64,000 bases of DNA from an uncultured Verrucomicrobiae bacterium (GCA_963846775.1 CAWJXB010000006.1:1702990-1766989), one strand, 5' to 3'. Shown: positions 6,692 to 55,445, numbered from the stretch's first letter. Numbers and translations: made by a program. The notes: generated by a model from the sequence alone, not told the origin.

Positions 6692-6698
6692 TTGGGAA

Positions 6699-8151: not shown

Positions 8152-8183
8152 GACGGCAAAGCGTTGCGGATACCCCTTGGAAT

Positions 8184-9284: not shown

Positions 9285-9309
9285 CTCCTAGTTTTCGTTT
9301 GGTGTTTCC

Positions 9310-10158: not shown

Positions 10159-10368
10159 ATGAAAATTTCTTCCGACGATCAAAGAGGTATCGGCGTCATC
10201 CTCCTTTACACAGCGCTCCTTTTTTTCCTGATAGGTATGGCAGGCCACATGAAGGCCGATTTTCATTACCGCGCCGAAATTTTCACCGGTGGACTGACGA
10301 CGGCGGCGGTGCTGGCGACATTTGGCGTGATCATGCTCCTCGTCGCCGCGCGGCGAAAACAGAACTGA
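10159..10368 (+). CDS. small membrane protein (2 predicted TM helices), hypothetical
   Basis: 69-aa ORF with two hydrophobic helices in an otherwise empty 560-bp gap. Weak RBS; speculative. Confidence 0.3.
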   Translation: MKISSDDQRGIGVILLYTALLFFLIGMAGHMKADFHYRAEIFTGGLTTAAVLATFGVIMLLVAARRKQN

Positions 10369-10526
10369 CGCCAAGGAGCGACGGCTTCCCAGCCGTCGAG
10401 TGAAAGGTCGGGCGGCTGCCCAAGCCGCCGCTCCTCGGAGTTCTCGAATCCCTAAAAGTCCGGTGGCGGCCATTCATGGCCGCCACCGCGCCCTTTTGCC
10501 CGCCTCAGCGAGCACCCAGAGAGTGG

Positions 10527-10898
10527 TTATTCCTGCATCGCGCTGTGCAGTTTCTGATGCGCATCGCGCATTTCCTGGCGCGCCGCCTTCAGATCGTCCA
10601 ACTTCTTCTGCTGTTCCGGAGTGAGCAGTGGACGAATCTTCGACATCGTGTCGTCCATGATCGCATGCGTCTTCTGCATTGCGTCCTGATGGATGGCGAT
10701 GATCTGCGGTTTCGCTTGATCGATGATGGGTTGGACCTTGGCCTGTTGATCGGGAGTGAGGTTTAGCGTTTTGGTCATGTGTTCCAAGCCGCCAGCTCCG
10801 TGCCCGTGCCATTGATTGCCAGGCCCGGCCTGTGCTAAAACAAGTCCGCCCAGCGCGATAGCACAGATGGCGGCAAGTGTAAGAAGGTTTCGTTTCAT
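10527..10898 (-). CDS. Spy/CpxP-family periplasmic chaperone
   Basis: Signal peptide followed by repeated LTPDQQ / LTPEQQKKL motifs typical of the Spy/CpxP/LTXXQ family, 123 aa. Confidence 0.7.
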   Translation of the reverse strand: MKRNLLTLAAICAIALGGLVLAQAGPGNQWHGHGAGGLEHMTKTLNLTPDQQAKVQPIIDQAKPQIIAIHQDAMQKTHAIMDDTMSKIRPLLTPEQQKKLDDLKAARQEMRDAHQKLHSAMQE

Positions 10899-11058
10899 AG
10901 TTTTGGTATTTGGTTTGTTCTAATGACCCCGAAAAACTTCGGGGCGTTCATGGATTGGTGACCGGCCGGGGCAAAACGCGGTTACATTTTTTACGACGAA
11001 CGTGCGAATCTATTTGTCGCGGGCCGGCAGAGACAATCTACAGTGGACGCCACGGAAG

Positions 11059-41331: not shown

Positions 41332-41577
41332 GGGCCTCCCAGCCGCTACGCACCGCCTGGCGGCTAGGAAAGCCGTCGAGTGGGAGGCCGCAGTTTCGCC
41401 AGGGTCGACATGATCCAAAGTTCCCAACGTAGTTGCGAAACGATTGGTCGGCACGACTGAGAATAAGCGCGCTTGGAGCAACATAGGGTGTTGCATCGAA
41501 TACGGCCTCTGCCTGAGCGCAGCCTTGGCCGCGGTTCGCGGTTGCTAGGGCGCGCAAAGAGGGTTACAAACTGCACC

Positions 41578-42261
41578 GTGATTGACTATATCCAGAAGGG
41601 CGGATTGCTGATGTGGCCAATTCTGGTCTGCAGCATCATCGCCATCGCCGTTTTTTTAGAGCGACTTTTTTATTTTCACCGCGCGACGATTCACGTCGGC
41701 GAGTTTTTGAAGGGACTGTCGAACTTGATTCAGCGTCGGAATTTTGCCGAGGCTTTGCATGAATCGGCCGGGACGCCGGGGCCGGTGGCGCGGGTGATTC
41801 ATGCGGCCATTATCCGGCACGATGCACCGCGGACGGAGCTGCGCGACATCGTGCAGGAAGCGGGACAACTGGAAGTGCCGAAGCTGGAGCGCTTCCTCGG
41901 TGTGCTGTCGACGATCGCGTTTCTCGCGCCGCTCCTTGGCTTGTTAGGCACGGTCGCGGGCATGATCGACGCGTTTGGCACGATTTCAGCGAGCGGTGGT
42001 TATGTAACCGTGACCGAGCTTTCCCGCGGCATTTACAAGAGTTTGCTCACCACGGCCGCTGGTCTCGTCGTCGCGACGCCTACGTTTGTGGCCTATAGTT
42101 ATCTCTCGTCGCGTGTTACGACGATGTTGCACGACATGGAACGCGCTGGGATCGAGATCGTTCACATGTTGACGGAAAGCCGGCCGATCAGCGGCATTAT
42201 CAGCTTCCAGCAGCCCGATGAAGCAGCTGCGCGTGAGCGCGAGGCACGGCAGGATCTTTAA
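41578..42261 (+). CDS. exbB: MotA/TolQ/ExbB proton-channel family protein
   Basis: 3 TM helices and the conserved C-terminal TM2/TM3 region (LGLLGTVAGMIDAF). GTG start chosen; an ATG at 41611 is also possible. Confidence 0.8.
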   Translation: MIDYIQKGGLLMWPILVCSIIAIAVFLERLFYFHRATIHVGEFLKGLSNLIQRRNFAEALHESAGTPGPVARVIHAAIIRHDAPRTELRDIVQEAGQLEVPKLERFLGVLSTIAFLAPLLGLLGTVAGMIDAFGTISASGGYVTVTELSRGIYKSLLTTAAGLVVATPTFVAYSYLSSRVTTMLHDMERAGIEIVHMLTESRPISGIISFQQPDEAAAREREARQDL

Positions 42262-42380
42262 CCACGAATCAACACGAATTGAGAGTTTCAAGCATTTCCC
42301 GGGAAGCTTTCAGCTTCCCCATCGGGAGCTATCTTCCATTCGCGTTGATTGGTGTCCATTAGTCATTAATTCAGCGCGAC

Positions 42381-42785
42381 ATGAAGCTCATTCGCACAAA
42401 AAATTACCACTTCGGCTGGCTGGTTGTTTGTCCGCTGCTCGACATCGCTTTTTTGATGGTGTTTTTCCTCCTGCTCAGCTCGCATTTTCTTTTGCAGCAG
42501 GGCGTTTCGGTCTCGATGCCGTTATCGCGGTTTGTCCTGGGGCCGCAATTGAACCAGCAAATCATTAGCATCACCGGTGGCGCGTCGCCCGCGATTTATT
42601 TTCGTGAACAACGAGTCACACTCGAACAACTCGGGCCGATGCTCGACGCGGCCAAACGCGACGGGCAATCGATCATCATTAAGGCGGATCGGCTGACGCC
42701 GTACGAATTGGTGGTCGAAGTTACGAACGCGGCGCTGGAGCACGGGATTACCTCCGTAGCCTTGGCTGGAGTGCCGCCGCAATGA
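42381..42785 (+). CDS. exbD: biopolymer transport protein ExbD/TolR
   Basis: Single N-terminal TM then a periplasmic domain, 134 aa. Confidence 0.8.
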   Translation: MKLIRTKNYHFGWLVVCPLLDIAFLMVFFLLLSSHFLLQQGVSVSMPLSRFVLGPQLNQQIISITGGASPAIYFREQRVTLEQLGPMLDAAKRDGQSIIIKADRLTPYELVVEVTNAALEHGITSVALAGVPPQ

Positions 42786-42860
42786 ATGCGTTTGTCGTCG
42801 GGATTGTTCGGTCAGCGCTGAGGAGGCATCATCTTCCGCTACCGTCGGCGGGACAGCTTT

Positions 42861-43658
42861 GTGTTTGCCATGAATGGGATGGCTAATTTCCCGCTTCTTT
42901 TTCAATGGGAACCGCCACGTGCACGGCGAGGAGCGATCATTCTTTTTTTGATTCTATCGCTGTTGGCGCATGCATTCTGTTTTTACCTGTTTCAGGTTGT
43001 TTATCCGCCAACGGTCGCGCTTTTGCCGCCGCCGGCGCGGGTTAGTTTGATCGCGGCTCATTCCGCGGAAGGTCAGACCCTGCTGTCCTGGATTGAATCG
43101 GAGGACCCGGCGCTGGCGTTTACGACCGTGCGTCCAACTGAAGGAAAACTTCGCGCATTGCCGAAGATAGCGCACGTCCCTTCGTATCGGACGCATCAGC
43201 CGATGCTAAAAGAAGCGCCGCCACTGGCTGTCGATATCAACCCGCCGAGCACGCGACCACCGGCGCCGATTCCGATCGTGCGTCGGAATGTCGAGCCCTT
43301 AACCAATCAAAAGATCCCGACGACGATTTCGTTTTCGGATGAGCTAAGTTCGTTAGGCGCTGCCATCATGCCGCCGTTCAAGCTCACCGCGAGCAATACG
43401 GAAGCGCCGCAAAACATGCGATTTCGCGTCGCCGTCGCTCCTGGCGGCGAAGTGCATTATTGTTTCCCTCTCACCAGTTCTGGCGACGCGGCCCTGGACG
43501 AACAAGCGCGCCAGGCCATCGCGCTTTGTCGGTTCCCGGGAACAACCAATCATCGACCGCCCACGGCCAACGCGCTGGTTTGGGGAATCGTCACTCTCGA
43601 TTGGGGCAATGATGTTGCGCCACCGTCCGCCCCACCGACATCCGCCCCGATTCGTTAA
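42861..43658 (+). CDS. TonB-like energy transducer (divergent)
   Basis: N-terminal TM anchor, Pro-rich spacer, C-terminal TonB_C-like domain. Directly downstream of exbBD. Confidence 0.6.
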   Translation: MFAMNGMANFPLLFQWEPPRARRGAIILFLILSLLAHAFCFYLFQVVYPPTVALLPPPARVSLIAAHSAEGQTLLSWIESEDPALAFTTVRPTEGKLRALPKIAHVPSYRTHQPMLKEAPPLAVDINPPSTRPPAPIPIVRRNVEPLTNQKIPTTISFSDELSSLGAAIMPPFKLTASNTEAPQNMRFRVAVAPGGEVHYCFPLTSSGDAALDEQARQAIALCRFPGTTNHRPPTANALVWGIVTLDWGNDVAPPSAPPTSAPIR

Positions 43659-43682
43659 CGACCTGGCCCGCGAGCATCGAGG

Positions 43683-43970
43683 TTGCGGTTTCGATTTCGC
43701 AAGCCGGGAGGCATGCGCTACTCTTCTCCCGTGATTCAAGTCAGTCTCACCGCGCTAATCACGATTTATTTGCTGCTTTTTCTTGCGGCGGTTTTCCTCC
43801 TCTGGATATTGGGGGAATGGAATCGCCGCCGGCGCGAACGTCGGGCCTTGCGCTATCGACTGCGCTGCGTGATTTGCGCGTTTGAGTTTGAAGATCGGAC
43901 CGACGCGCTGCTTCCGCGGTGTCCGCGCTGCGGCAGCCTAAACGAGCGATTCAAACTGGAACGAATTTGA
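43683..43970 (+). CDS. small membrane protein with C-terminal CxxC...CxxC zinc ribbon, hypothetical
   Basis: One TM helix then CVIC...CPRC. True start is probably the internal Met (MRYSSP). Confidence 0.35.
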   Translation: MRFRFRKPGGMRYSSPVIQVSLTALITIYLLLFLAAVFLLWILGEWNRRRRERRALRYRLRCVICAFEFEDRTDALLPRCPRCGSLNERFKLERI

Positions 43971-43971
43971 T

Positions 43972-45150
43972 ATGGGAATGTGGATTGGCCGCAACCGCAA
44001 GGCGCGCGTGACGTATGGCTTCGATGAAATCGCGCTCGTGCCGGGACGTGTCACGATTAACCCGAACGAAGTCGATACCACATTTCGGTTGCCGCGAAAA
44101 AATGCGGAGCCGCTCGTGTTAAAGATTCCGGTGCTGGCCAGCGCGATGGATGGCGTGGTCGATGTTCGGTTCGCGATTGCGATGAGCCAGCTCGGCGGCC
44201 TGGCCGTGCTGAATCTCGAAGGCGTGCAGACCCGCTACAAAAGCCCCAGGGAAGTCCTGCAAAAAGTTGTCGATGCTGATAAGTCGCAGGTCACCGCGTT
44301 GCTGCAAAAAATTTATCAGGAACCGGTCCAGGAAAATCTGATCGCAGCTCGGATCAAGGAGATCAAGGACAGCGGCGCGTTGGCAGCGGTTAGCTCGATC
44401 CCGCAGCGCGCGGCCGAGTTTGGGAAGATCGCCGAGGAAGCGGGCGCGGATGTTTTCGTCGTGCAAAGCACCGTCTCAACCGTCCGCCACGTTTCGTCGG
44501 AGTATCAGTCGCTCGATCTGGAAAAATTTTGCCACGAAATGCGGATCCCGGTCATCGTCGGCAACACGGTCGGTTACGACGTTACGTTCGAGATCATGGA
44601 ATGTGGGGTGGCGGCGGTGTTGATCGGTGTGGGGCCAGGCGCGGCATGCACGTCGCGCGGCGTGCTCGGGCTGGGCGTCCCGCAAGTGACCGCCACAGTC
44701 GATTGCGCCGCGGCGCGCGACGCCTATTTCAAGAAGACCGCGCGATACGTGCCGATTATCACGGATGGCGGGATGAGCAAAGGGGGCGATGTTTGCAAAG
44801 CGTTGGCCTGCGGTTCCGATGCAGTCATGATCGGAAGCGCGTTTGCCCGTGCCGAAGAAGCGCCAGGATGCGGGTATCACTGGGGCATGGCTACGCCGCA
44901 CGCGAATCTCCCGCGCGGCACGCGCATTCGAGTTGGCACGACCGGAAGACTGAAACAGATTCTCTTTGGCCCGGCTGAAGTGGACGACGGCAGCCAAAAT
45001 CTTGTCGGCGCGATCACCACCTGCATGGGCAATGTCGGCGCGCGCTCGATTGCCGAATTTCAACAAACGGAAATCATCATCGCGCCGTCGATCCGTACCG
45101 AAGGCAAGCTGTTCCAAACCGTGCAAAACGTCGGGATGGGAACAAGCTGA
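43972..45150 (+). CDS. IMP dehydrogenase-family protein lacking CBS subdomain (GuaB3-like)
   Basis: TIM-barrel IMPDH/GMPR motifs (active-site Cys loop GVGPGAACTSRGVLGLGVPQ), 392 aa, no CBS pair. Confidence 0.8.
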   Translation: MGMWIGRNRKARVTYGFDEIALVPGRVTINPNEVDTTFRLPRKNAEPLVLKIPVLASAMDGVVDVRFAIAMSQLGGLAVLNLEGVQTRYKSPREVLQKVVDADKSQVTALLQKIYQEPVQENLIAARIKEIKDSGALAAVSSIPQRAAEFGKIAEEAGADVFVVQSTVSTVRHVSSEYQSLDLEKFCHEMRIPVIVGNTVGYDVTFEIMECGVAAVLIGVGPGAACTSRGVLGLGVPQVTATVDCAAARDAYFKKTARYVPIITDGGMSKGGDVCKALACGSDAVMIGSAFARAEEAPGCGYHWGMATPHANLPRGTRIRVGTTGRLKQILFGPAEVDDGSQNLVGAITTCMGNVGARSIAEFQQTEIIIAPSIRTEGKLFQTVQNVGMGTS

Positions 45151-45198
45151 GCGGAACTTGTTGGCTAAAGCTGTCAGCTGCCCTTACCGCAATTACGA

Positions 45199-46449
45199 AT
45201 GAACTTTGATCGTCGAGTCGTTATTACCGGCATGGGCGTGATCACGCCGGTCGGGAACGATTTGGAAACCTTCTGGACGAGCCTGAAGAACGGCGTCAGC
45301 GGGATTCGCCGAATCGAAGCGTTCGATACCACCGCTTACGACACCAAGATCGCCGGCGAAGTGCGCGGGTTCGACCCAAAGCCATTCTTTAAGAATCCGA
45401 AGGATGTGCGGCGGAGCGATCGGTTCGGCCAATTCGCCATGGCTGCGGCGAAGATGGCATTGGACGATAGTGGGGTCGATCTGAGCGCGGAACGGCGCGA
45501 TCGCTTCGGTGTGATCGTGAGCAGCGGCATCGGCGGATTAAAAACTTTGGAGGAACAACACACGATTTTGTTAACCAAGGGGCCGTCCCGGAGCTCGCCC
45601 TTTACCATTCCAATGTTGATCAGCAACATCGCCGGCGGCTTGATCTCAATGGAGTTCGGTTTGAAAGGTCCGAATCTCTGCATCGTGACCGCGTGTGCGA
45701 CTTCGGCCAATGCCATCGGCGAATCGTGGCGCATGATTAAGTTCGGCGATGCAGACATCTTTCTCGCTGGCGGTTCGGAAGCGGCGATTGTTGAAATTGG
45801 CGTGGCCGGATTTTCGGCGATGAGAGCGCTGAGCCGGCGAAATGCCGAGCCGGAGCGCGCCTCGCGCCCGTTCGATCGCGACCGGGATGGATTTGTGATG
45901 AGCGAAGGCGCCGGCGTGGTCGTGGTCGAGGAGCTGGAACGTGCCAAAGCGCGCGGCGCGAAGATTTACTGCGAAATCGCCGGTTACGGTTTAAGCGCGG
46001 ACGCGTATCACATGACCGCGCCCCCGCCGGACGGTGAGGGCGCAGCGCGCGCCATGCAGATGGCGTTGAATCGGGCGCAGATTGCGCCGGAAGAGGTCGA
46101 TTACATCAACGCCCACGCTACCTCCACTGACATCGGCGACGTGTGCGAGACGCGTGCCATCAAAACCGTGTTTGGCGAACGCGCGCACAAAGTGGCCATC
46201 AGCGCGACCAAATCGATGACTGGCCATTTGTTAGGCGGGGCGGGGGCGGTCGAGATGGCCGCGTGCGCCCTGAGCATTCGCGATGGAATCATTCCGCCGA
46301 CGATCAATCTCGAACACCCGGATGAAGGGTGCGACCTGGATTACACGCCAAACAAGGCGCGGGAAAAGAAAGTGCGGATCGCGCTCAACAACGCCTTCGG
46401 TTTCGGTGGGCACAACGCCACCCTCGTGGCGAAAGCCTTCGAAGAATAG
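45199..46449 (+). CDS. fabF: beta-ketoacyl-[acyl-carrier-protein] synthase II
   Basis: 416 aa; active-site Cys (ACATSANAIG), His-His (HATST, GHLLGGAG) and C-terminal NAFGFGGHNA. Confidence 0.92.
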   Translation: MNFDRRVVITGMGVITPVGNDLETFWTSLKNGVSGIRRIEAFDTTAYDTKIAGEVRGFDPKPFFKNPKDVRRSDRFGQFAMAAAKMALDDSGVDLSAERRDRFGVIVSSGIGGLKTLEEQHTILLTKGPSRSSPFTIPMLISNIAGGLISMEFGLKGPNLCIVTACATSANAIGESWRMIKFGDADIFLAGGSEAAIVEIGVAGFSAMRALSRRNAEPERASRPFDRDRDGFVMSEGAGVVVVEELERAKARGAKIYCEIAGYGLSADAYHMTAPPPDGEGAARAMQMALNRAQIAPEEVDYINAHATSTDIGDVCETRAIKTVFGERAHKVAISATKSMTGHLLGGAGAVEMAACALSIRDGIIPPTINLEHPDEGCDLDYTPNKAREKKVRIALNNAFGFGGHNATLVAKAFEE

Positions 46450-46564: not shown

Positions 46565-47032
46565 CTAGTGATCGGCAAAGACTGGCCCGGCGGAAATGTC
46601 TGCGGCGGTGAATTCGAAAACGTGTTCCTTGGCGCGGAGGGTTTTTAGAAGCACCGCCAGATTTTGCGCGGCTTGCGCGGCGTAAAAGCGTACCAGACCG
46701 ACCGTGGTGCGCTTGCCGAAGACCGCAATCATGATCGTTTCATCATCGACCGAATTCATAAAAATGTGGCTGCTGTTGCCCTGATGAAAGAGCGCATTGA
46801 ACTCGACTTCGCCGATCCGGCGGGCGAGCTCACACGTGGCGGCAAATGAACCGGCGGCAAGCGCGGCCATGATCGTGACATCCACAGCCTCCCGTTCGCC
46901 GAACTGTGAGATTACGTTGCCGCCGCGATCAATCACAATCGTCAAATCGCCCTCGGCTTTGTGCACGAACTCGGCCAAAATGGCGTCAAGTGCGGCGACG
47001 TCTTCGATCGTCAGGGCGGGAATTCCGTTCAT
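46565..47032 (-). CDS. mglB: roadblock/LC7-domain protein, MglB-like GTPase-activating protein
   Basis: 155 aa roadblock fold. The C-terminal block (TTVGLVRFYAAQAAQNL) aligns with the MglB TSLGLVRLRIKKASDEL region. 4-bp overlap with the upstream mglA. Confidence 0.75.
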   Translation of the reverse strand: MNGIPALTIEDVAALDAILAEFVHKAEGDLTIVIDRGGNVISQFGEREAVDVTIMAALAAGSFAATCELARRIGEVEFNALFHQGNSSHIFMNSVDDETIMIAVFGKRTTVGLVRFYAAQAAQNLAVLLKTLRAKEHVFEFTAADISAGPVFADH

Positions 47033-47700
47033 GGGGAAGCTTCCTTCTCTTCCGCAGCGCCATGCTGCACTGGGATCGCCACCGGCGGCGGCGGAGTGTG
47101 CGGCAGATCACTTTGTTTGCTAAATTTATGAAGCAAAATCTGCGAAACCGCATTGAGGGCGGAGAATACGTTTTGTCCGGTACTGGAAATGGCCTCGAAA
47201 CTTTGTAATCGCTTCTTCCGGTTGTTCAGAGTGTATTCGAGATAATTGATCGGTGCGACATTCGGCAGATCCCGCTTGTTATACTGAAGCACGAGCGGTA
47301 TGTCGTCGATGTTGGCGTTTTGGAGGGCGAGATTCTCGCTCAGATTCTTGAAGCTTTCCACGTTCTCCTCCATTTTCTCCCATTGGGAATCGGCCACAAA
47401 AACGAGACCATCGGTGCTGCGCAACACGAGCTGGCGGGTAGCGTTGTAAATCACCTGACCCGGCACGGTATAGAGCTGGAACTTCGTCACGAAGCCTTTG
47501 ATCACGACCGCATTCAGCGGTAAAAAATCGAAGAACAAGGTACGGTCGGCAGCCGTGGCCAACGAAACCAGTTCGCCACGATTTTTCGGACTGATCCGCT
47601 GATGGATGTAAGCCAGGCTCGTCGTCTTCCCGCACAGCGCGGGCCCGTAGTAAACGATCTTGAATTGGATTTCGCGGCTGGCGTAATTAACGATCGACAT
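47029..47700 (-). CDS. mglA: Ras-like small GTPase MglA
   Basis: Near-colinear with Myxococcus MglA: (SIVNYASREI)QFKIVYYGPALCGKTT, TLFFDFLPL, LYTVPGQV, DGLVFVADSQ, LQYNKRDLPN. Start at the internal ATG (MSIVNY). Confidence 0.9.
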   Translation of the reverse strand: MSIVNYASREIQFKIVYYGPALCGKTTSLAYIHQRISPKNRGELVSLATAADRTLFFDFLPLNAVVIKGFVTKFQLYTVPGQVIYNATRQLVLRSTDGLVFVADSQWEKMEENVESFKNLSENLALQNANIDDIPLVLQYNKRDLPNVAPINYLEYTLNNRKKRLQSFEAISSTGQNVFSALNAVSQILLHKFSKQSDLPHTPPPPVAIPVQHGAAEEKEASP

Positions 47701-49762
47701 GCGAGGGTTCCGGATAGGCTTGTGAGACTTGCTGGAGAAGCTGCGCCAGTTGCTCACGCGTTTCGGTGCTGAGGTCCTGGCCGTTTTTGTGCCAGGCAGT
47801 CAGGCAAAGTTTGTCTTGCTTGAAAAAGGTCAGGCTCGAATCACCACAATGCAGCGACATTGCCACGAGCCCGCCAAGTCTTGTGTCTTCGAGGTGATTG
47901 TCGATCTTGTCGATCAGCGCTGGCGCGATGGAACAGATCCCTTCGGCCTGCAAATCGCCCGGGATGTTACCCGCCAGGCTGAGGCCGTCCGTGAACGAGA
48001 CGGTGCAACCGGCCACGCCAGTGAGACCACTGGCGCGAGCAATTGCGCGTTTGGCGTCGATCGCTTCCGCCTTGGCCGAGGCTCCGGCAGACGGTTCGAT
48101 CTTTTCTTCAGTTGGACGTTGGGCAGCCCGCCCCGTTTCTTTTTTTACGGGGTTGGGTGTCGGGCGTTGGGCGTTTTCTTTGCCACTCTGAAAACGTTTC
48201 GCGTCCTCCTCCGCTTTGAGCGAAAATGGCGTCTCGAATTTCTCGGTCACCGCTTCCTGTTCCTGGTCCGCGCGCACGCGCAGCGCCGTGACTGGAAACT
48301 GCTTCACGATTTCTGGCAACGGGAGCGTCACCGCTGTCTCGTTAGGATCAACCAGGAAGAGCGGCCGATACGCTTCGGGCACGGCCCGTTCGAAAATGCG
48401 CGCCGGGATACTAACGCGACCAGACGCCAACTGTGGCTCTATCATCGACGACGGAAATTCCACGCGCGCGTCTTCCGGAACGCTCATCGGGCTGCCGTTC
48501 AATTGAAATGGCGGCAACTCGCTCAGGACCGCCTGGAGCGACAAGATAATGTTGCGCTCGCCCTTTCCGCCTGGTGTCGGCGCGACCGGCTGCCTCGGGG
48601 ACGGCTCAGATTTTGCGGCAGGCTCGATCCCCGGCACGAGGGTAAACTTGGGGCGAATATCGTTGCTCGGCGCTTTAACCGCGAACGGAACCGGCGGAAG
48701 CGGCGGTTGATCGAGAGCGACTGTCTCGTTAGGCTTCTGCGCCGGGGCCGCGACGGCCGATTCAGGTTCAGACGCCGAAATTGGAACGGGCGGCCCGCTT
48801 GAGGCTGGAACTCTCTCAGCGGCGGGCGCGCCCGTCCCGTTCGGTGGAAGATGGAACGGAATCTCTCTGGCGGCCGGTGTGGCAATACCATCATCGGCGC
48901 GTGGGGTTTGCAGGGTCGCTGGAGGAGAAGCAGCGGGAGCTGAAGTAAGCGCTCCCAAATCCCGCAGCGAAATCTTTGGCCGGCGGGACCGTGTCGGAGT
49001 TTCCTCGGAAACCTTTTGCTTTGGTTTCGCTAATTGCAGAACGGCGGGTTCAGGCTCGGCTTCGGCGATTGTTTTCGCAATCGCGGGCTCCACTTTCATC
49101 GGCGGCTGCGTCGATGTTTGCAACGGCTCGATCTCGGTGCCAAAGCGCTCCGTGTCCTCGATCGTGACCTGCAAGATCGGCGTGTCGAGCTGGGGCAAAT
49201 TTTCATCGCGTTCTTGATCGTTGCGCACGTGAAAATTGTGGAATTGCTCGAGCACTTTCGCATAGGGAAGCGGGACCGGAGTGGCGTCTCCTGGCGCGAC
49301 GACGTTGACAAAAATTTCCGGCGCCTGTTCATAGATGCTCGCCAGTGGCACACTCGGCTTGCCCTTAGCCATGCCCTTTTCGATCTCCGATGCCATGAGA
49401 ACAATGGTGCGCGCGGCATCAATTTCCTTGGTTGGTTTAATGGCGGTGTTCGGCAACTGATCCAGAATGTCAGACACTTGGAGAGAAATGGTGCGTCGGA
49501 TTTCCGCTTCGGGAGTGCGTTCATTCAGGGGCCGAGCCGTCAAGGGGTCGAGTGCACGAGCGGAGTTCTTCGCCCCCAGAAACGGATCGGACCCGCTCCC
49601 TGGGCGGTTCGCGCTCGGCATCACCGTCTTACTCAAACGCTGATCCTTTGACTTCACTGCCCGCACCATCGGTGGTGCCGCCGGCTTGCTTTTCCCGAAT
49701 GGAAAAAAACGCGCCTTCGCTTTAATGACAAGATCGACAAACGGCAGGTTCATAACGCTCAC
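47687..49762 (-). CDS. Pro/Ala-rich 691-aa protein with internally duplicated motif and C-terminal roadblock/LC7-like domain
   Basis: Low-complexity Pro-rich central region. A ~35-aa motif occurs twice (IYEQAPEIFVNVVAPGDATPVPLPYAKVLEQF and IFERAVPEAYRPLFLVDPNETAVTLPLPEIVKQF). The last ~120 aa resemble a roadblock fold. Confidence 0.6.
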   Translation of the reverse strand: MSVMNLPFVDLVIKAKARFFPFGKSKPAAPPMVRAVKSKDQRLSKTVMPSANRPGSGSDPFLGAKNSARALDPLTARPLNERTPEAEIRRTISLQVSDILDQLPNTAIKPTKEIDAARTIVLMASEIEKGMAKGKPSVPLASIYEQAPEIFVNVVAPGDATPVPLPYAKVLEQFHNFHVRNDQERDENLPQLDTPILQVTIEDTERFGTEIEPLQTSTQPPMKVEPAIAKTIAEAEPEPAVLQLAKPKQKVSEETPTRSRRPKISLRDLGALTSAPAASPPATLQTPRADDGIATPAAREIPFHLPPNGTGAPAAERVPASSGPPVPISASEPESAVAAPAQKPNETVALDQPPLPPVPFAVKAPSNDIRPKFTLVPGIEPAAKSEPSPRQPVAPTPGGKGERNIILSLQAVLSELPPFQLNGSPMSVPEDARVEFPSSMIEPQLASGRVSIPARIFERAVPEAYRPLFLVDPNETAVTLPLPEIVKQFPVTALRVRADQEQEAVTEKFETPFSLKAEEDAKRFQSGKENAQRPTPNPVKKETGRAAQRPTEEKIEPSAGASAKAEAIDAKRAIARASGLTGVAGCTVSFTDGLSLAGNIPGDLQAEGICSIAPALIDKIDNHLEDTRLGGLVAMSLHCGDSSLTFFKQDKLCLTAWHKNGQDLSTETREQLAQLLQQVSQAYPEPSHVDR
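48131..48178. repeat. 35-bp hairpin repeat, copy inside Pro-rich protein coding sequence
   Basis: ccccgtttctttttttacggggttgggtgtcgggcgttgggcgttttct; encodes ...NPVKKETG... on the minus strand. Confidence 0.6.
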
Positions 49763-51477
49763 TGGTCCTCCGCCGTAACGCGCCAGACTTCTTCCAGCGT
49801 GGTGATACCTTCCAGCGCCTTCTCGATTCCAACCTTGCGCAATGTTTTCATTCCTTCGTTCATCGCCTGGTTCTTAATAACCGCAGCCGAAGCGCGTTTA
49901 ATGACGAGCCGCCGGATCGTTTCCGTCACGGTCAGCGCCTCGATAATGGCGACGCGTCCCACATAGCCGCGGCCCTTGCACCGATCACATCCGGAGCCGC
50001 GATAAAAAACTGTATTCTCTCGATCTCGCAGGGCGAGCCGCTCGAGCAGCTCCGGCTCGGGCTTGAATTCATCTTTGCAGTTGGGGCAGACTCGCCTAAC
50101 GAGACGCTGGGCGCAGGTCATGAGAATGGAGCTGGAAATCAAGAACGGCTCGATCCCCATGTCGTCCAGGCGGGTGATCGCACCAGCCGCGTCGTTCGTG
50201 TGGAGCGTGCTTAACACCTGGTGACCGGTCAACGCCGCTTTGACCGCGATGTCGGCAGTCTCGTTGTCACGAATTTCTCCCACCATCACGATGTCGGGAT
50301 CCTGTCGCAGGATCGAGCGAAGCGCGGATGAAAAATCCAAACCGATGTCGCTGCGTACGGCGACCTGGTTCACCCCCATCAGCTCGTATTCGATCGGGTC
50401 TTCCACCGTCACGATGTTGTATTGTGGATTGTTCAGCTCGTGCAGAACGGAGTAAAGCGTCGTGGTTTTGCCCGAACCAGTCGGGCCCGTCACCAGGATC
50501 ATTCCGTGCGGCGCATCGATCGCTTTGCGGAATTTCTCCAGAGTTTCCTGGTCCATGCCTAACTGATCGATCCCGCCGGAAAGGGATGTCTTATCCAGAA
50601 TACGAATCACAATTTTCTCGCCGTGCGCCGTTGGCAGAATCGAGATACGAAGATCGACATCTTTGCCCATGACCCGGACCCGGAAACGCCCATCCTGCGG
50701 CAGACGGCGCTCCGCGATATTCAGCCCGGCCAAAATTTTCATGCGCGAAGTGATGGCAAGCTGAAGCGCTTTCGGCGGCGACTCGGCCGGGAGCAGCTCG
50801 CCATCGACACGGTAACGCAATTTCAGCGCCGTATGGAACGGTTCGATGTGAATGTCTGACGCTTTTTCCTTCACGGCCTGCGCCAGGATCAAATTCACCA
50901 TCTTAATCACGGGCGCGTCGTCGCCGTCGGTCGCCAGACGCTCCAGATCGATCTCTTCGTGTTTGGCCACGTGCACTTTCACGTCGGACGCCTGCACCGC
51001 CGCTTCGGCCGCTTTCTTCAACGCCTGGCTCATGTTGCCGACGCCGTGAATCCCGCTCAGCATTTCGGTGACCGCTTTCTCGGTGGCGATCATCGGGACG
51101 ATCTCGAGCTGGACGCGACGCTTCAGGTCGTCCATGGCCAACACGTTGGTCGGATCGGCCATGGCGACGAAGAGTTTGCCGTTTAAGCGCGCGATCGGCA
51201 CTAACTTGTTCGTCTTGGCCATCTCCCGCGGCACCAGCGCCGTAATCTCTTCGGGCACACGCACCTTTGTCAGGTTCACGGGCGGCGTATTCAGGCACCG
51301 GCCCGTGCTGAACGCCATGTCCTGTTCAGTGACGAATTGTCGTTCCGTCAGGATCTTCAGCAACCGGCCACCCTCGGCTTTTTGAATGTCGAGCGCCTCG
51401 CGCAATTGCGCCGGCAAAAGCAGTCCGTCCTCAATCAGGACGTCGGCGATGCGCTCTCCAAAAGATTTCGTTTTCAT
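49759..51477 (-). CDS. pilB: GspE/PilB-family secretion ATPase (type IV pilus assembly ATPase-like)
   Basis: N-terminal T2SSE_N domain, Walker A GPTGSGKTT, Asp/His boxes, tetracysteine CPNC...CDRC. Start at the internal ATG (MKTKSFGER). Confidence 0.88.
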   Translation of the reverse strand: MKTKSFGERIADVLIEDGLLLPAQLREALDIQKAEGGRLLKILTERQFVTEQDMAFSTGRCLNTPPVNLTKVRVPEEITALVPREMAKTNKLVPIARLNGKLFVAMADPTNVLAMDDLKRRVQLEIVPMIATEKAVTEMLSGIHGVGNMSQALKKAAEAAVQASDVKVHVAKHEEIDLERLATDGDDAPVIKMVNLILAQAVKEKASDIHIEPFHTALKLRYRVDGELLPAESPPKALQLAITSRMKILAGLNIAERRLPQDGRFRVRVMGKDVDLRISILPTAHGEKIVIRILDKTSLSGGIDQLGMDQETLEKFRKAIDAPHGMILVTGPTGSGKTTTLYSVLHELNNPQYNIVTVEDPIEYELMGVNQVAVRSDIGLDFSSALRSILRQDPDIVMVGEIRDNETADIAVKAALTGHQVLSTLHTNDAAGAITRLDDMGIEPFLISSSILMTCAQRLVRRVCPNCKDEFKPEPELLERLALRDRENTVFYRGSGCDRCKGRGYVGRVAIIEALTVTETIRRLVIKRASAAVIKNQAMNEGMKTLRKVGIEKALEGITTLEEVWRVTAEDQ

Positions 51478-52373
51478 GACCCCGGCGAACCCTTGGCCGA
51501 ATCGAGCCGGTAAATTCCCTGCAACGTCTTCACAATGGCCGACGGCCGGGCCAGGTACCACATCACGGTGTAATCGACCGATTGCTGCACCGCTTCGCGC
51601 CCGGCGGCATCGAACGGATTGCAGCACGCCACCATCATCGTTCGGCTAACTAGATCGAACGGCGCGAAGAGCCGGCCCAGCGTGAGGTGTTCCGGCAACA
51701 TCGGCGCGATTTGCCGGTCCACATCGTAATACTCGAGCGGCACGTAAGCGAACTTGGTTCGGTCGATCAGGGCCGAAAGGATTTTTTCCGACTTCTCGAT
51801 ATTATCCTTGCACAAATGGTCTAACAATGAGGCTGCGATCGTTTGTGGCGGCAGTTCCTTGTTCATTTGGTCCACCGCTTTCACCGCCGGTTTCACTTCC
51901 TCTTCCGGGAAGAGTTGTTGAACGATGAGAAATTTTGCGAGCTGATCGGTGCCGCGTTCGTGCAAACTGCTGACTTTACCAACGTTAGCGCCCGGAACGA
52001 TATCGATCAACGCGCCCTCCGCTTCGCCGGCGCCATTGGGGCCGGCCGATTTCGCCGCTGTCGCGCCTGCGGCCTGCAAGCGGGCCTCGATCTCGCCCAA
52101 CATCGCCAGGATGTCGGGCGCGTTCGGTTCTTTCCCAAGCACAACCTCGCATTCCTGCATCGCGTGGGCGTACGAACCCGCGGCGAAATACGCCTCCGCC
52201 AGCCGGCGAGACGTACGCAAAGAATCGGCGTCTCGACCGACTTTCCGGTAAGCCTCCTTCAGAATTTCCAGCGATTGATAGTCGTCGGGTTGGGTTTGAG
52301 TAATTGCCTCAAACATCTCGATCGTCTGGACGATCTGTGTATGTTCTTGTTTCGACAGACTGTGTCCCAGCAC
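51474..52373 (-). CDS. stand-alone GspE-N (T2SSE_N)-like domain protein with TPR-like N-terminus
   Basis: C-terminal ~100 aa (LLDHLCKD...YVPLEYYDVD...LGRLFAPFDLVSRTMMVACCNPFD) resemble the N-terminal domain of PilB/GspE ATPases. 4-bp overlap with pilB. Confidence 0.5.
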   Translation of the reverse strand: MLGHSLSKQEHTQIVQTIEMFEAITQTQPDDYQSLEILKEAYRKVGRDADSLRTSRRLAEAYFAAGSYAHAMQECEVVLGKEPNAPDILAMLGEIEARLQAAGATAAKSAGPNGAGEAEGALIDIVPGANVGKVSSLHERGTDQLAKFLIVQQLFPEEEVKPAVKAVDQMNKELPPQTIAASLLDHLCKDNIEKSEKILSALIDRTKFAYVPLEYYDVDRQIAPMLPEHLTLGRLFAPFDLVSRTMMVACCNPFDAAGREAVQQSVDYTVMWYLARPSAIVKTLQGIYRLDSAKGSPGS

Positions 52374-52494
52374 GTCGCCCTAAAAAAGCTAGAAATATGC
52401 CCCTCGCTCGCTATCGCGACCGAAAAGGAGTGGAATTACACAAATTACCTATAATCCGGGGCATCCTCTTTCCTGATTGTTCGTGAAATTGGCG

Positions 52495-52570
52495 TTAAAA
52501 AAGTCGGAAAAAACAACCTTTTCTCCGAAATTTAGCAAAAAGGGGCGCTGCAATTCGAAAAGGAAGAAGA
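52495..52570 (+). promoter_or_regulatory. conserved ~75-bp upstream element (copy 1, before PMT-like TPR gene)
   Basis: ttaaaaaagtcggaaaaaacaaccttttctccgaaatttagcaaaaaggggcgctgcaattcgaaaaggaagaag; ~75% identical to 54681-54757. Confidence 0.55.
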
Positions 52571-52598
52571 AGTGTCCGCGGTTGCCAAAGCCTGGTCT

Positions 52599-52674
52599 GT
52601 AGCGGCGCGTCTATGACCGTCGCCATCTCTCAGCCCTCCAGTTTGCGACGGTCGCAGACTGCCGCTACAATCGC
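52599..52674. repeat. REP-like pair inserted in 5' leader of the PMT-like TPR gene
   Basis: gtagcggcgcgtctatgaccgtcgcc - 20-bp spacer - tgcgacggtcgcagactgccgctacaatcgc. Confidence 0.7.
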
Positions 52675-52692
52675 TCGCAGGGTGCCTTTGCC

Positions 52693-54561
52693 ATGAACTT
52701 AACCGGGTTGCGGCAGCATACTCGTTGCGCCGCTTTATTGATCGCGCTTGCCGTATTGCCGTACCTACAGACCCTCAGTCACGATTTCATCAACTACGAC
52801 GATAATCTATATGTCACCGAGAACCATCATGTCCAACAAGGCCTGACCTTGCCCGCAATCTCGTGGGCGTTTACCACATTCAAAGGCGGCAACTGGCATC
52901 CCCTGACGTGGCTCTCGCACATGCTGGACATAAACATCTGGGACGGATGGCCGGGCGGGCATCATCTCACGAACGTCGCGCTCCACGCCGCAAATACACT
53001 GTTGTTATTCCTGATTCTACTGGAAATGACCGGTGGCCTCTGGCGGAGCGCTCTGGTCGGCGCTCTTTTTGCCGTGCATCCGCTCCATGTGGAATCGGTT
53101 GCCTGGATTGCCGAACGCAAAGACGTCCTCAGCACTTTTTTTGGCTTGCTTGCTCTCTGGGCTTATCTCGCATATACGCGCCGGCCCTCAGCCAAACAAT
53201 ATTTGGCCATGACCGGTTTTTTCATTCTCAGCCTGATGGCGAAACCGATGCTGGTCACTTTCCCCTTTCTGCTTTTGTTGCTTGATGTCTGGCCACTAAA
53301 ACGATGGAGGCTCGGTCCAGTCGATAGCGAAGGCCGCAGAAGCCATCTCGCCAATGGTAGGGACGGCTCGCCGGTCGATCCGCATCGAGTGTCCCACGAT
53401 GCGGCAATAAAACGCGCTATTCTGGAGAAACTTCCGCTGTTCGTCGTCGCTGCGATGTTCAGTGTGATCGCCATCGTCTCACAACGCGGCACGGGGGCCC
53501 TCGGCGGGCTTGTCGCGTTTCCGCTTTCAACTCGGATCGTCAACGCCTTTGTCGGATACGCGTTGTATCTCGAAAAGCTGGTCGCGCCCGTGAATCTGGC
53601 GGTTTTCTATCCACATCCTGGTCACTGGCCGATGCTTCAAGTCGCGGTGAGTGTTGCCATCCTGTTGGGGATTACCGTCGTTGCCATCTGGCAGCGAGGT
53701 CGGCGGCCATGGCTGCTGATCGGCTGGTTGTGGTTTGTTGGAATGCTCGTTCCAGTAATCGGTTTGATCCAGATCGGTATGCAATCGATCGCCGATCGAT
53801 ATACCTATTTCCCGGCGATCGGCGCTTTCATAATGATCGCGTGGAGCATTCCCGCTGCGATGCCGCCGATGGCAAAGCGCGCGGTGATCGGCGCGGCATG
53901 CATCTGCATTCTTGGCCTAACAATAATGACATGGCGCCAGATTTCCTACTGGCAAAATAGCCGGACGCTCTTTACTCACGCTCTTGCGGTCACGCGCGGT
54001 AATTTCATCGCACACCAAAATCTTGGGAGTGTCTTCGAAGGGGATGGGAACCTCAACGCTGCGCTCGAACAATACCGCTGGGCCGCCAGCGAATTCCCAG
54101 GATACGGAAGGATTCACGAAAACATCGGGAACGTCTTGCTGAAACAGGGCCGTTATCCGGAAGCGTTAGCAGAATTTAAGAGCGCCATCGATCTCGACCC
54201 GCATTCCTCAAGTGCCTTCAACAGCATCGGATCTATCGCGCTCATGAATCAGCAATACGACGATGCGGCGAAGTACTTCCGACGCGCTGTTGAGCTCGAC
54301 CCCGATAACGTTCCCGCGCACATTAACTTCGGCACATCCTTGGTAAAGCTTGGCCGATACGATCAAGCGATTGCGCAATTGGCTCCGATCACGCGAGCGG
54401 AGCCAAAGCGTATTGTGGCCAGAACGAACCTCGCTCGCGCTCTGGCCGGTCGTGGGAATGTCGATCAAGCCATCGCCGAATTGCACCAAATTCTTCAGAT
54501 GCAGCCCGAGTACGCTCCGGCCCGCGAAGCTCTGCAAGAGATTCAAATCAATCGACGATAA
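52693..54561 (+). CDS. PMT-like (DUF1736-type) membrane glycosyltransferase with C-terminal TPR repeats
   Basis: Conserved N-terminal FINYDDNLYVTEN...GLT motif, ~11 TM helices, then 5-6 TPR repeats, 622 aa. Confidence 0.8.
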   Translation: MNLTGLRQHTRCAALLIALAVLPYLQTLSHDFINYDDNLYVTENHHVQQGLTLPAISWAFTTFKGGNWHPLTWLSHMLDINIWDGWPGGHHLTNVALHAANTLLLFLILLEMTGGLWRSALVGALFAVHPLHVESVAWIAERKDVLSTFFGLLALWAYLAYTRRPSAKQYLAMTGFFILSLMAKPMLVTFPFLLLLLDVWPLKRWRLGPVDSEGRRSHLANGRDGSPVDPHRVSHDAAIKRAILEKLPLFVVAAMFSVIAIVSQRGTGALGGLVAFPLSTRIVNAFVGYALYLEKLVAPVNLAVFYPHPGHWPMLQVAVSVAILLGITVVAIWQRGRRPWLLIGWLWFVGMLVPVIGLIQIGMQSIADRYTYFPAIGAFIMIAWSIPAAMPPMAKRAVIGAACICILGLTIMTWRQISYWQNSRTLFTHALAVTRGNFIAHQNLGSVFEGDGNLNAALEQYRWAASEFPGYGRIHENIGNVLLKQGRYPEALAEFKSAIDLDPHSSSAFNSIGSIALMNQQYDDAAKYFRRAVELDPDNVPAHINFGTSLVKLGRYDQAIAQLAPITRAEPKRIVARTNLARALAGRGNVDQAIAELHQILQMQPEYAPAREALQEIQINRR

Positions 54562-54680
54562 TTTTGCCGGGCATTTGCCCGCGCATTGAATAACTCTCAC
54601 GTTTCCCGCCACGCCATGGGTCTTTCCGAGAAGAGCAGTTGGCGCAGGGTCGGTCGCGCCCGCAATTTCCACTCAAAATT

Positions 54681-54757
54681 TTCAAAAAAGGGTGGAAAAA
54701 GCTTGACCTTTTATCCGAAATCTATCAAAACGGACGCTGTAATTCTAACGAGGAGAA
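54681..54757 (+). promoter_or_regulatory. conserved ~75-bp upstream element (copy 2, before PEP-CTERM gene)
   Basis: ttcaaaaaagggtggaaaaagcttgaccttttatccgaaatctatcaaaacggacgctgtaattctaacgaggagaa; ends in RBS 5 nt before the ATG. Confidence 0.55.
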
Positions 54758-54761
54758 TATT

Positions 54762-55445
54762 ATGAGCCCAGAAAACCGAAAACTGAGTCCCCGTATTGAC
54801 GGTCGTTTGGCCGCGTATGCAACCCTGGCAGGTGCCGCCTTAGCCGCGCCGGCTGTCCCGAACGCTGATGCCACTATCGTTTACAGCGGAATCGTCAACT
54901 TTAATATCCCGAGCACGACGGCTGGCATTTATTTGAACGTCGTCACTGGCGTCACCTCGACGACTCCCGCCGGCGCTCCCGGCTGGGACCTGAACCCATG
55001 GAGCAGCAGCTCCCTCGAAATCTGGGGAAATAATTCCGCCAGCCCTAATGATGGTGTTCTGGACAACTTCACGGGAGGCGCAGCTGGTTCAGTCGATAAT
55101 CTTCCGGTTGGAGCTGTCATCGACGCCTCGTGGAACTATGGCAGAACCGATTCTACGGTTGAAACGTCCGGCCCCACTGCCTTTAATCTCAACAGCAGCA
55201 ACAACATTTTTGGATTCCGGTTCTTGAACGAATCTACCGGTGTATATGACTTCGGCTGGGCGCGGGTTTCGCTTTCCGGGACCTTAGGCGGCCAGCCACG
55301 GGCGATTGTGGAGTATGCCTACGAGGACACGGGCGCGGCAATTATGGCCGGCCAAGTTCCAGAGCCTTCTACCATGGCTCTGCTGGGCGTGATGGCAGCA
55401 GGTGCACTTGGCGTGCGCGCCTGGCGCAAGAGTAAGAAGTCGTAA
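54762..55445 (+). CDS. PEP-CTERM sorting-domain protein
   Basis: Signal peptide. C-terminus VPEPSTMALLGVMAAGALGVRAWRKSKKS is the PEP motif + TM + basic tail. AGGAGA RBS 7 nt upstream. Confidence 0.85.
   Translation: MSPENRKLSPRIDGRLAAYATLAGAALAAPAVPNADATIVYSGIVNFNIPSTTAGIYLNVVTGVTSTTPAGAPGWDLNPWSSSSLEIWGNNSASPNDGVLDNFTGGAAGSVDNLPVGAVIDASWNYGRTDSTVETSGPTAFNLNSSNNIFGFRFLNESTGVYDFGWARVSLSGTLGGQPRAIVEYAYEDTGAAIMAGQVPEPSTMALLGVMAAGALGVRAWRKSKKS

Follow-up and report, generated by a model that had tools for sequence, protein, structure and literature searches.

The Ras-like GTPase MglA acts on type IV pili through tetratricopeptide repeat (TPR) effectors and recruitment of the ATPase PilB, according to four reports (PMC7519303, PMC7668184, PMC11580455, PMC3983030). 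Polar localization of PilB in Myxococcus requires SgmX and SopA, and direct contact of SgmX with PilB or PilM has gone undetected (PMC11580455; PMC7519303, PMC7668184). The MglA of Bdellovibrio binds Bd2492, a short TPR protein, and the hub to which the two belong also senses cyclic di-GMP (c-di-GMP) (PMC3983030). MglB and the Pro-rich landmark RomR are linked by MglC, which is a second roadblock protein, and MglA-GTP breaks this link; the acidic FDI patch of MglC binds the four-helix side of MglB (K14/R115/K120) (PMC10329633). The extension ATPase is the point at which regulatory inputs to pilus formation converge (PMC11580455, PMC5595344). In a 2014 survey, Verrucomicrobia were found with group 5 MglA only and no group 1 (Wuichet & Sogaard-Andersen). 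Here, we describe a five-gene locus in a stretch of 64,000 nucleotides from an uncultured Verrucomicrobiae bacterium (GCA_963846775.1 CAWJXB010000006.1:1702990-1766989; hereafter the window, meaning the full 64-kb stretch and not the five-gene block alone). Its genes, named g1 to g5 from the start of the predicted operon, encode a TPR protein with an MshEN-like domain, a PilB-type ATPase, a Pro-rich protein with two copies of an apparently unannotated domain (here called D) and with a roadblock domain at its C-terminus, a predicted MglA, and an MglB-like protein.

The locus shares with the M. xanthus MglA-SgmX-(FrzS/SopA)-PilB pathway of unipolar type IVa pili (T4aP) an MglA (53% identical, with the catalytic residues), an adjacent MglB GTPase-activating protein (GAP), a TPR protein and PilB, and g3 resembles SopA in that its folded domains are split by disordered linkers. 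However, the genes of the M. xanthus pathway are scattered, whereas here they stand in one operon. SgmX contains 14 TPRs and no MshEN (PMC11580455), whereas g1 is a short TPR protein with a domain resembling the N-terminus of PilB, and g3 has D and roadblock domains that are not known from SopA, FrzS or RomR. None of the M. xanthus genes for RomR, RomX, RomY and Frz was seen in the window. The M. xanthus RomR/MglC/MglB system likewise has a second roadblock-fold protein besides MglB, and its polar landmark RomR is a Pro-rich/acidic low-complexity linker protein; however, MglC is a separate protein of 120 aa, whereas the roadblock domain of the present locus is joined to the Pro-rich g3, which has no receiver domain.

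The MglA-Bd2492-RomR-CdgA system of Bdellovibrio bacteriovorus also uses a short TPR protein (353 aa, compared to 299 aa for g1), with type IV pili at one pole and a c-di-GMP input (PMC3983030). In that organism, however, MglB has been lost, Bd2492 is encoded with tamAB and not with pilB, and the c-di-GMP receptor is the separate protein CdgA, whereas here the predicted receptor is the MshEN motif of PilB. Compared with the MshEN-containing ATPases MshE and PilB and the PilB adaptors FimX/PilZ, the motif of g2 fits the c-di-GMP-binding consensus and the helical half of the g1 domain does not. Clusters of PATAN, roadblock and small-GTPase genes next to pil genes were reportedly noticed by Makarova and colleagues in 2006 and by Wuichet and Sogaard-Andersen in 2014. 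Such clusters likewise link MglA/MglB-type genes and additional roadblock genes with pilus genes, as do three distant loci of the present analysis (L088, L089 and L090), but the operon of the window has no PATAN gene. A literature search found no description of the operonic unit, of its presence in Verrucomicrobiota, of a TPR-MshEN adaptor or of a D-D-roadblock scaffold, in line with the statement in the initial annotation of this stretch that the architecture had not been described as a unit in such a lineage. Control of type IV pili by MglA/MglB through a TPR effector and PilB is a known theme, and the operonic unit appears to be new. We know of no previous description of an MshEN/T2SSE_N domain that stands alone, is joined to TPRs and is encoded directly upstream of the ATPase.

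Five overlapping genes are predicted to form one operon

The five genes occupy 46565-52373 as overlapping minus-strand open reading frames (ORFs), with g1 first and g5 last (Table 1). From low to high coordinate the overlaps are 4 bp (g5/g4), 14 bp (g4/g3), 4 bp (g3/g2) and 4 bp (g2/g1). The initial annotation had given exactly these coordinates and overlaps, and the five gene identities that it proposed all held in Pfam, NCBIfam and PDB sequence matches and, for g3, in Foldseek. The mechanical ORF of g2 extends further, to a GTG at 51627; the chosen start codons coincide with N-termini that are conserved in 58-69 orthologues. A consensus scan showed no sigma-70-like promoter on the minus strand and seven terminator-like sites inside the operon compared to 9.1 expected by chance. 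Because the scan gave no signal, operon status is based on the gene overlaps and on conservation, which indicate that the five genes are probably a translationally coupled operon.

Table 1. Coordinates of the five genes, their predicted domains and motifs, and the flanking features (positions in the window)
Feature	Position	Strand	Description
g1	51474-52373	-	299 aa; TPR + MshEN-like (T2SSE_N); first operon gene
g1 TPR region	52083-52283	-	residues ~31-97; Pfam TPR_14/TPR_19
g1 MshEN-like domain	51501-51941	-	residues ~145-291
g2	49759-51477	-	572 aa from ATG at 51477 ('MKTKSF...'); PilB-type (PilB/GspE family) hexameric ATPase
g2 MshEN c-di-GMP motif	51313-51453	-	residues 9-55; predicted binding; NF053729
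g3	47687-49762	-	691 aa; Pro-rich; C-terminal roadblock (predicted)
g3 N-terminal basic/hydrophobic helix	49703-49753	-	residues ~4-20, 'NLPFVDLVIKAKARFFP'; conserved in alignment A1
g3 D1	49229-49501	-	residues 88-178; ~90-residue (beta-alpha)x4 domain
g3 linear motif 'IPFHLPPNGTGAPAxERVPASSGPPVP'	48782-48862	-	residues ~301-327; near-invariant; in disordered linker
g3 D2	48293-48562	-	residues 401-490; second D copy; pLDDT ~88
g3 roadblock/LC7-fold domain	47708-48055	-	residues 570-685 (predicted)
g4	47029-47700	-	223 aa from ATG at 47700 ('MSIVNY...'); predicted MglA Ras-like GTPase
g5	46565-47032	-	155 aa; predicted MglB roadblock-type GAP
FabF gene	45199-46449	+	convergent; bounds block on mglB side
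TPR gene	52693-54561	+	divergent; bounds block on g1 side
Intergenic region 5' of g1	52374-52692	.	presumed operon promoter

The arrangement is conserved in Chthoniobacterales

A scan covering one genome per species yielded 135 genomes with a g3 relative, from which 80 loci were kept and searched by tblastn with the window proteins. The loci were labelled Verrucomicrobiota, Chthoniobacterales or 'Spartobacteria', save one short contig. This 3.9-kb contig, labelled Phycisphaerae (L054), was considered as a case of spread to Planctomycetes and rejected as a probable mis-binning, being otherwise typical of the clade. The lineage of the operon is Verrucomicrobiota, order Chthoniobacterales, and its host is a soil bacterium.

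The five genes were colinear in all 61 loci with enough flanking sequence, and the other 19 lacked genes only at contig ends; the neighbourhood, which the initial annotation had proposed to compare among related genomes, is therefore kept in order wherever it can be assessed. The median identity to the window proteins was 83% for MglA, 81% for PilB, 71% for MglB, 66% for g1 and 39% for g3, with ranges of 63-93% for MglA (74 loci), 67-76% for MglB (73 loci), 60-87% for g1 (64 related loci) and 34-49% for g3. Colinearity in 61 of 61 loci from different species-level genomes is far beyond chance, and colinearity at such median identities indicates that the arrangement survived long divergence.

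A more distant locus (L084) also contains the complete five-gene set. As a separate observation, a second gene for an MshEN+T2SSE ATPase lies about 5 kb upstream of that cluster (L084:1-759); genomes of this kind may hold two PilB/GspE paralogues, of which the operonic copy may be specialized. In three further loci, from Chthoniobacter sp. (L085) and two relatives (L086 and L087), only the trio of TPR/MshEN, PilB and D-D-roadblock genes is present, without adjacent mglA/mglB (genes at ~5200-12100). The g3 forms of these loci are 799-1373 aa long and have no 'PPNGTG' motif. The trio is followed by an FG-GAP/beta-propeller gene in L085 and L087 and by HEAT-repeat and ECF sigma-factor genes in L086, and rpoA is also among the unrelated followers. 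Taken together, these comparisons suggest that the older core is the g1-PilB-g3 trio and that MglA/MglB were either added to it or lost from it. The 'self-contained module' of the initial annotation does not stand in the strict sense, since the window has no pilin, platform or secretin genes and the sister clade keeps the trio alone.

These loci raise the question of whether mglA and mglB are hitch-hikers that entered the operon in one clade and regulate something else, such as a different motility or polarity system, beside an older g1-PilB-g3 unit that needs no MglA. The unrelated genes that follow the trio in L085, L086 and L087 are in keeping with this explanation, as is the report that the neighbourhoods of group 1 MglA 'vary widely' (PMC4316618). 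However, mglA overlaps g3 by 14 bp and is itself overlapped by mglB by 4 bp, and all 61 assessable loci keep the arrangement despite the divergence of g3 to 34-49% identity. In addition, every g3 carries a roadblock domain at its end and proteins of this fold are typically partners of small GTPases, D-domain proteins stand beside MglA/MglB again in two unrelated lineages, and the MglA/MglB of Chthoniobacter may be encoded elsewhere in its genome. On balance, we regard hitch-hiking as quite improbable and a functional association of MglA/MglB with the trio as the preferred reading.

g4 and g5 encode an MglA/MglB pair

The search against PDB sequences showed that g4 matches MglA of M. xanthus (5ymx, E 1.2e-65) and of T. 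thermophilus (E 4.7e-61). The sole gap in the alignment with M. xanthus MglA is of two residues, and the alignment is ungapped up to residue 160. The P-loop 'GPALCGKT' and the G4 motif 'NKRD' align with those of M. xanthus MglA and are invariant in 69 orthologues. The intrinsic arginine finger R53, Thr78 (in TVPGQ, replacing the Asp of the Ras G3 motif) and the catalytic Gln82 occupy positions identical to those in M. xanthus MglA and are kept in all 69 orthologues. The MglA call of the initial annotation, for which the MglA-specific Arg and Gln had been named as the residues to inspect, is borne out by these three residues. The results indicate that g4 probably encodes a genuine, group 1-like MglA, paired with an adjacent mglB that overlaps the mglA stop by 4 bp. 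As a further observation, g4 ends in a Pro-rich tail of ~28 residues (47029-47112, '...DLPHTPPPPVAIPVQHGAAEEKEASP'), which neither the M. xanthus nor the Thermus MglA has; the 'VAIPV' core of the tail is conserved in the clade.

The g5 protein matched Pfam Robl_LC7 above the cut-off (2.5e-7) as well as MglB of M. xanthus (6h5b chain B, 1.8e-18) and of Thermus (1j3w, 7.6e-9). Against the NCBIfam MglB equivalog model NF052242 it scored 58 bits (E 1.1e-15), which does not reach the cut-off of 200. Since this model was built on Thermus-type MglB, the lower score weakens the assignment as an equivalog of the model but not the roadblock/MglB-like call. We conclude that g5 is most probably an MglB-like roadblock protein that would form a GTPase/GAP pair with g4.

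The ATPase g2 is probably closer to PilB than to GspE

Pfam matches of g2 were T2SSE (1.7e-139) and MshEN (1.3e-16), and the Walker A motif 'GPTGSGKT' and the Cys motifs 'CPNC...CDRC' are readable in its sequence. The score against the NCBIfam PilB model TIGR02538 was 637.8 bits (cut-off 675.65), with g2 residues 10-569 aligned to positions 2-563 of 564, and that against the GspE model TIGR02533 was 623.4 bits (cut-off 630.25), with only residues 82-568 aligned. The best PDB matches were full-length T4aP PilB proteins, namely those of Geobacter (5tsg, 519 bits) and M. xanthus (3jc8, 514 bits), followed by Thermus PilF (506 bits), compared to 421 bits for GspE (4pht); the ATPase core alone scored ~414-420 bits against both PilF and GspE structures. 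An extension ATPase of the T4aP type is favoured by the length of g2, by its alignment with the PilB model from one end to the other and by the solved structures closest to it.

In addition, g2 scored 40.1 bits against NF053729 ('c-di-GMP motif, MshE-related'; cut-off 38). Its motif I 'RIADVLIEDGLLLPAQLREALDIQ' fits the consensus RLGxxLLxxGLLxxxxLxxxLxxQ and is near-invariant in 62 orthologues, and its MshEN motif II is degenerate. The 'PilB-type ATPase' of the initial annotation is thus backed by length, N-terminal architecture and closest solved relatives, but not by the NCBIfam scores, which are nearly equal. Assignment of g2 to PilB rather than GspE is favoured, though not settled.

Several relatives carry a divergent five-gene pilin/minor-pilin cassette ahead of g1 (L082:1022-7211, on the same contig as L001; L002; L003). 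Its first gene is pilin-like (GspG/PilA-type N-terminus), and weak matches to the 'Verru_Chthon cassette' proteins D, B, C and A (TIGR02596/98/99/600) follow. The order is GspG-H-I-J-K-like, with GspH, GspJ and GspK-like N-termini, and the last gene encodes a protein of 1010 aa with PilX_N. In the window this cassette is absent and its position is taken by the TPR gene. No prepilin GFxxxE motif turned up when the window was searched in each of its six reading frames.

The T4aP minor pilins FimU, PilV, PilW and PilX are homologous to GspH-K and follow the same order. This homology means that the cassette does not separate type IV pili from type II secretion systems (T2SS), and it bears on the alternative that g2 is the GspE of a T2SS-like or pseudopilus system built on the 'Verru_Chthon' pilin cassette, with MglA/MglB, g1 and g3 positioning or gating secretion. 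The closeness of the two NCBIfam scores, both below their cut-offs, the like scores of the ATPase core against PilF and GspE structures and the T2SS order of the cassette would all be expected under this alternative, and the Chthoniobacterales loci showed no PilT, PilM or PilQ within +/-10 kb. However, g2 runs end to end on the PilB model and reaches the GspE model only from residue 82, it has the extra N-terminal helical MshEN subdomain with the c-di-GMP motif, and its top solved relatives are full-length T4aP PilB (514-519 bits compared to 421 bits for GspE). The cassette is not discriminating, its last gene matching PilX_N, and an Armatimonadota cluster of D-domain, MglA and MglB genes adjoins pilMNO-pilQ-pilB-pilT. 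We therefore consider a secretion role for g2 unlikely and retain PilB as the working assignment.

g1 joins TPRs to an MshEN-like domain

Pfam matches of g1 were TPR_14 (5e-5, residues 56-95) and TPR_19 (35-93) in the N-terminal half, MshEN (formerly T2SSE_N) at residues 210-291 (4.5e-7; 30.2 bits compared to a cut-off of 23.1), and no ATPase domain. The result agrees with the initial annotation, which had read g1 as a TPR and T2SSE_N-only protein and proposed a profile check of its C-terminus. The TPR region is the best-conserved stretch of g1 and gave weak PDB matches to designed TPR proteins. With NCBIfam models, residues 145-289 aligned to the MshEN region of NfrB and residues 177-289 to PilB positions 25-137; hhalign placed residues 221-288 on PilB 77-144, a weak match in the T2SSE_N register. 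Pfam matches only the alpha/beta T2SSE_N half of the domain. A recent partial copy of the PilB N-terminus was considered as the origin of g1 and rejected, as BLASTP gave E=19 and the homology is at profile level only. A total of 4518 homologues were found at E<=1e-5, with source names 'TPR repeat protein' or 'hypothetical' only.

g3 combines two D domains with a roadblock domain

The full-length g3 protein gave no Pfam match (E<=0.01) and no NCBIfam match. It has at least 676 homologues, many of which carry the Joint Genome Institute (JGI) name 'regulator of Ras-like GTPase activity (Roadblock/LC7/MglB)', which is COG-based. The protein was analysed with an alignment of 46 members (A1), an alignment of the D copies (A2) and an AlphaFold2 model. 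From the N-terminus the order is helix, D1, conserved motifs, D2, linker and roadblock, that is, three folded parts in a disordered, Pro-rich background; the Pro content is 12.2% overall and 18.5% in the central linker. The initial annotation had described a 'long disordered scaffold'. The disordered Pro-rich linkers agree with this description, but the two confidently folded D copies and the invariant short motifs go beyond it.

In the N-terminal helix, residues 8-19 are helical in the model and the hydrophobic moment is 0.33; this helix might bind a membrane or a partner. The two D copies are ~25% identical to each other (A2). Modelled alone, the domain reached a predicted local distance difference test (pLDDT) score of 86.7 and a predicted template modelling (pTM) score of 0.75, and a search of the D-domain profile against PDB sequences found nothing at E<=10. 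In the linear motif, the columns I301, P306, P307, G309, G311, V318, P319, A320 and P327 are invariant in A1, and pLDDT is below 50. Most close members of the family have the motif; the distant long forms lack it. A tail of the form 'R-DQ...ETPF....ED..RF' repeats after both D domains. These conserved short motifs have the look of docking peptides.

Residues 570-685 are predicted to adopt an alpha-beta-beta-alpha-beta-beta-beta-alpha topology with pLDDT ~85. Foldseek matched this part of the model to an Asgard Roadblock protein (9jue, E 1e-6, template modelling (TM) score 0.77) and to M. xanthus MglB (6izw_C, TM 0.77), with Ragulator/LAMTOR subunits among the top matches. Altogether 111 PDB matches were obtained at E<=1e-3, and the 50 best were all roadblock-fold chains (Roadblock, LC7, Ragulator/LAMTOR, MglB and one chain of a GATOR-Lam complex). 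A distant member of the g3 family (P0187) matched Pfam Robl_LC7 at 2.3e-5. The C-terminus of g3 is thus predicted to fold as a roadblock domain, and the fold check proposed with the initial annotation came out in favour of its roadblock call. A recent duplication of MglB was considered as the source of this domain and rejected, as hhalign gave a probability below 1% against the MglB of the operon.

This fold leaves room for a catalytic regulator of MglA (a second GAP, a co-GAP or guanine nucleotide exchange factor (GEF)) instead of a dimerizing or adaptor module. The initial annotation had proposed such a GAP/GEF-like partner, by analogy with MglC/RomY. Besides the fold shared with MglB, roadblock proteins are known to act as GAPs, as MglB does, and in GEF platforms, as do the Ragulator/LAMTOR complexes found among the top Foldseek matches, and the COG-based JGI name of many homologues has the same sense. 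However, the hhalign probability against the co-encoded MglB is below 1%, a canonical MglB is already present in the operon, and the domain persists in the trio-only clade, where no MglA is encoded beside it. Moreover, MglC, the closest conceptual analogue, is an adaptor without effect on GAP activity (PMC10329633). We give a catalytic function a low probability and tentatively favour a dimerizing or adaptor module as the interpretation of the g3 roadblock.

D-domain proteins occur near MglA/MglB in other lineages

An exhaustive profile search with the D domain identified 995 representative clusters at E<=1e-3. A hidden Markov model scan of the best 146 of these 995 showed that the D-(motif)-D-roadblock form is dominant, with long forms of up to 1373 aa. 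No Pfam match to the D domain was obtained in the ten members scanned, and the domain is not mentioned in published surveys (Makarova et al. 2006; Wuichet & Sogaard-Andersen 2014). By sequence comparison, D appears to be a previously unannotated domain, absent from Pfam and from solved structures.

Two clusters lie outside the clade. The first (L088:563-13856; unassigned lineage, G+C content 63%) carries the end of a T2SSE ATPase gene, followed by genes for a TPR+roadblock protein, a 1465-aa protein whose D domains number 5-8 (at least five), a 302-aa roadblock protein, a further roadblock protein, MglA and MglB, and after MglB by genes for roadblock, PATAN+roadblock and PATAN proteins, an Arf-like GTPase, PilM and PilN. 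Its MglA is 61% identical to that of the window, and with three to four roadblock proteins and two PATAN proteins the locus is an unusually dense GTPase/roadblock cluster. The second, from a metagenome-assembled genome of Armatimonadota (L090:4067-19001), encodes a TPR+roadblock fusion, a 1001-aa D protein, roadblock, MglA, MglB and PATAN proteins, pilMNO, pilQ, pilB and pilT. The 1001-aa protein has one D domain, extreme Pro/Ala/Glu-rich linkers and N-terminal transmembrane helices, the latter standing where g3 has its basic/hydrophobic helix. In L090, MglA and MglB lie inside a complete set of pil genes. Complete pil clusters were seen only in Armatimonadota-type relatives. The gene sets of L088 and L090 imply that, in at least two phyla, TPR, roadblock, D and Pro-rich modules have been shuffled into new combinations around MglA/MglB and genes for pili.

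Other genes of the window

Downstream of mglB, the block at 41473-46449 encodes ExbB, ExbD, two unknown proteins (265 aa and ~95 aa), an IMPDH/FMN_dh-like protein and FabF. Identity of the IMPDH-like protein within the clade is ~90%. The genes for it and for FabF lie downstream in about two-thirds of the related loci, and the whole ExbB-to-FabF block is annotated in L001-L003, the three loci examined in detail. Elsewhere, a gene at 33204-34478 (-) encodes an unusual fusion of an NTP_transferase domain (5e-63) to a C-terminal TonB_C domain (2e-8), and a gene at 9310-10473 (-) encodes a pyridoxamine 5'-phosphate oxidase with ~200 extra N-terminal residues that have no Pfam match. The PEP-CTERM trait noted for the window by the initial annotation corresponds to 54639-55445 (+), which matches the Pfam motif but with 19.6 bits compared to a cut-off of 20.7.

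Discussion

By analogy with the described systems, we consider it rather probable that the operon works as a regulatory unit of MglA/MglB and PilB, in which a PilB-type motor comes with its own module for control in space and time. The comparison suggests a pilus-polarity circuit like that of Myxococcus in a compact, hard-wired form built from different parts. Direct steering of PilB by the GTPase, as proposed in the initial annotation, is a tentative deduction from gene linkage. A specific wiring can be offered as a tentative model only. MglA-GTP would mark the pilus site, and MglB would turn MglA off elsewhere. The g1 protein would be the effector or adaptor in the role of SgmX (Myxococcus) or Bd2492 (Bdellovibrio); MglA-GTP and/or the invariant Pro-rich motifs of g3 would be the ligands of its TPRs, and its MshEN-like domain would engage PilB or the docking site of PilB on the machine. 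The g3 protein would be a scaffold. It would dimerize by way of its roadblock domain, might be kept at the membrane by the N-terminal helix and would concentrate MglA/MglB, g1 and PilB through the roadblock domain, the D domains and the motifs, and would thereby combine the roles of RomR, MglC and SopA. Binding of c-di-GMP to the MshEN motif of PilB would be a second input, and the output would be licensed, localized pilus extension.

A number of results count against this model. All of its mechanistic steps are drawn from gene linkage and analogy. The NCBIfam models do not separate g2, whose PilB and GspE scores are almost equal and slightly under the cut-offs. Domain scans found no pilin, PilC, PilM-Q or PilT in the 64-kb window, and the GspG-H-I-J-K-like pilin cassette beside the operon in relatives is equally compatible with a T2SS-like pseudopilus and with T4P minor pilins. 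The helical subdomain of g1 (~144-167, 'QLAKFLIVQQLFPEEEVKPAVKAV') is without the c-di-GMP motif residues R1, G10 and Q24, and the g3 roadblock is without profile similarity to the MglB of the operon. Of the MglB residues that bind MglC (K14/R115/K120), g5 keeps R115 only (A14, R115, Q120), so that a strictly MglC-like contact is not supported either. Finally, since the sister group keeps the trio only, the MglA/MglB link is clade-specific, and g1 and g3 are not obligately dependent on a next-door MglA.

A broader reading, which we regard as possible but doubtful, is that D-domain Pro-rich proteins, usually roadblock-ended or roadblock-adjacent, are an unrecognized cross-phylum core of polarity modules for MglA/MglB and type IV pili, in which D-D-roadblock and TPR-MshEN proteins bridge the GTPase to PilB in Chthoniobacterales. 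If this is true, the direct GTPase-PilB bridge would be a link without counterpart in Myxococcus, where SgmX-PilB contact went undetected.

The organisms carrying the operon are uncultured or hard to manipulate. To our knowledge, the signalling by which a GTPase tells the pilus machine where and when to act is understood only in Myxococcus. The operon provides a co-encoded parts list of five proteins, in which g1 joins a TPR module of the MglA-effector type to a domain resembling the PilB N-terminus and would make the missing link testable in vitro. It would also extend group 1-type MglA/MglB to the Verrucomicrobiota, an abundant and poorly studied soil phylum, and it defines what appears to be a new protein domain family (D). 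The shuffling of modules among phyla around the same GTPase may be useful for tracing how Ras-like polarity systems evolved.

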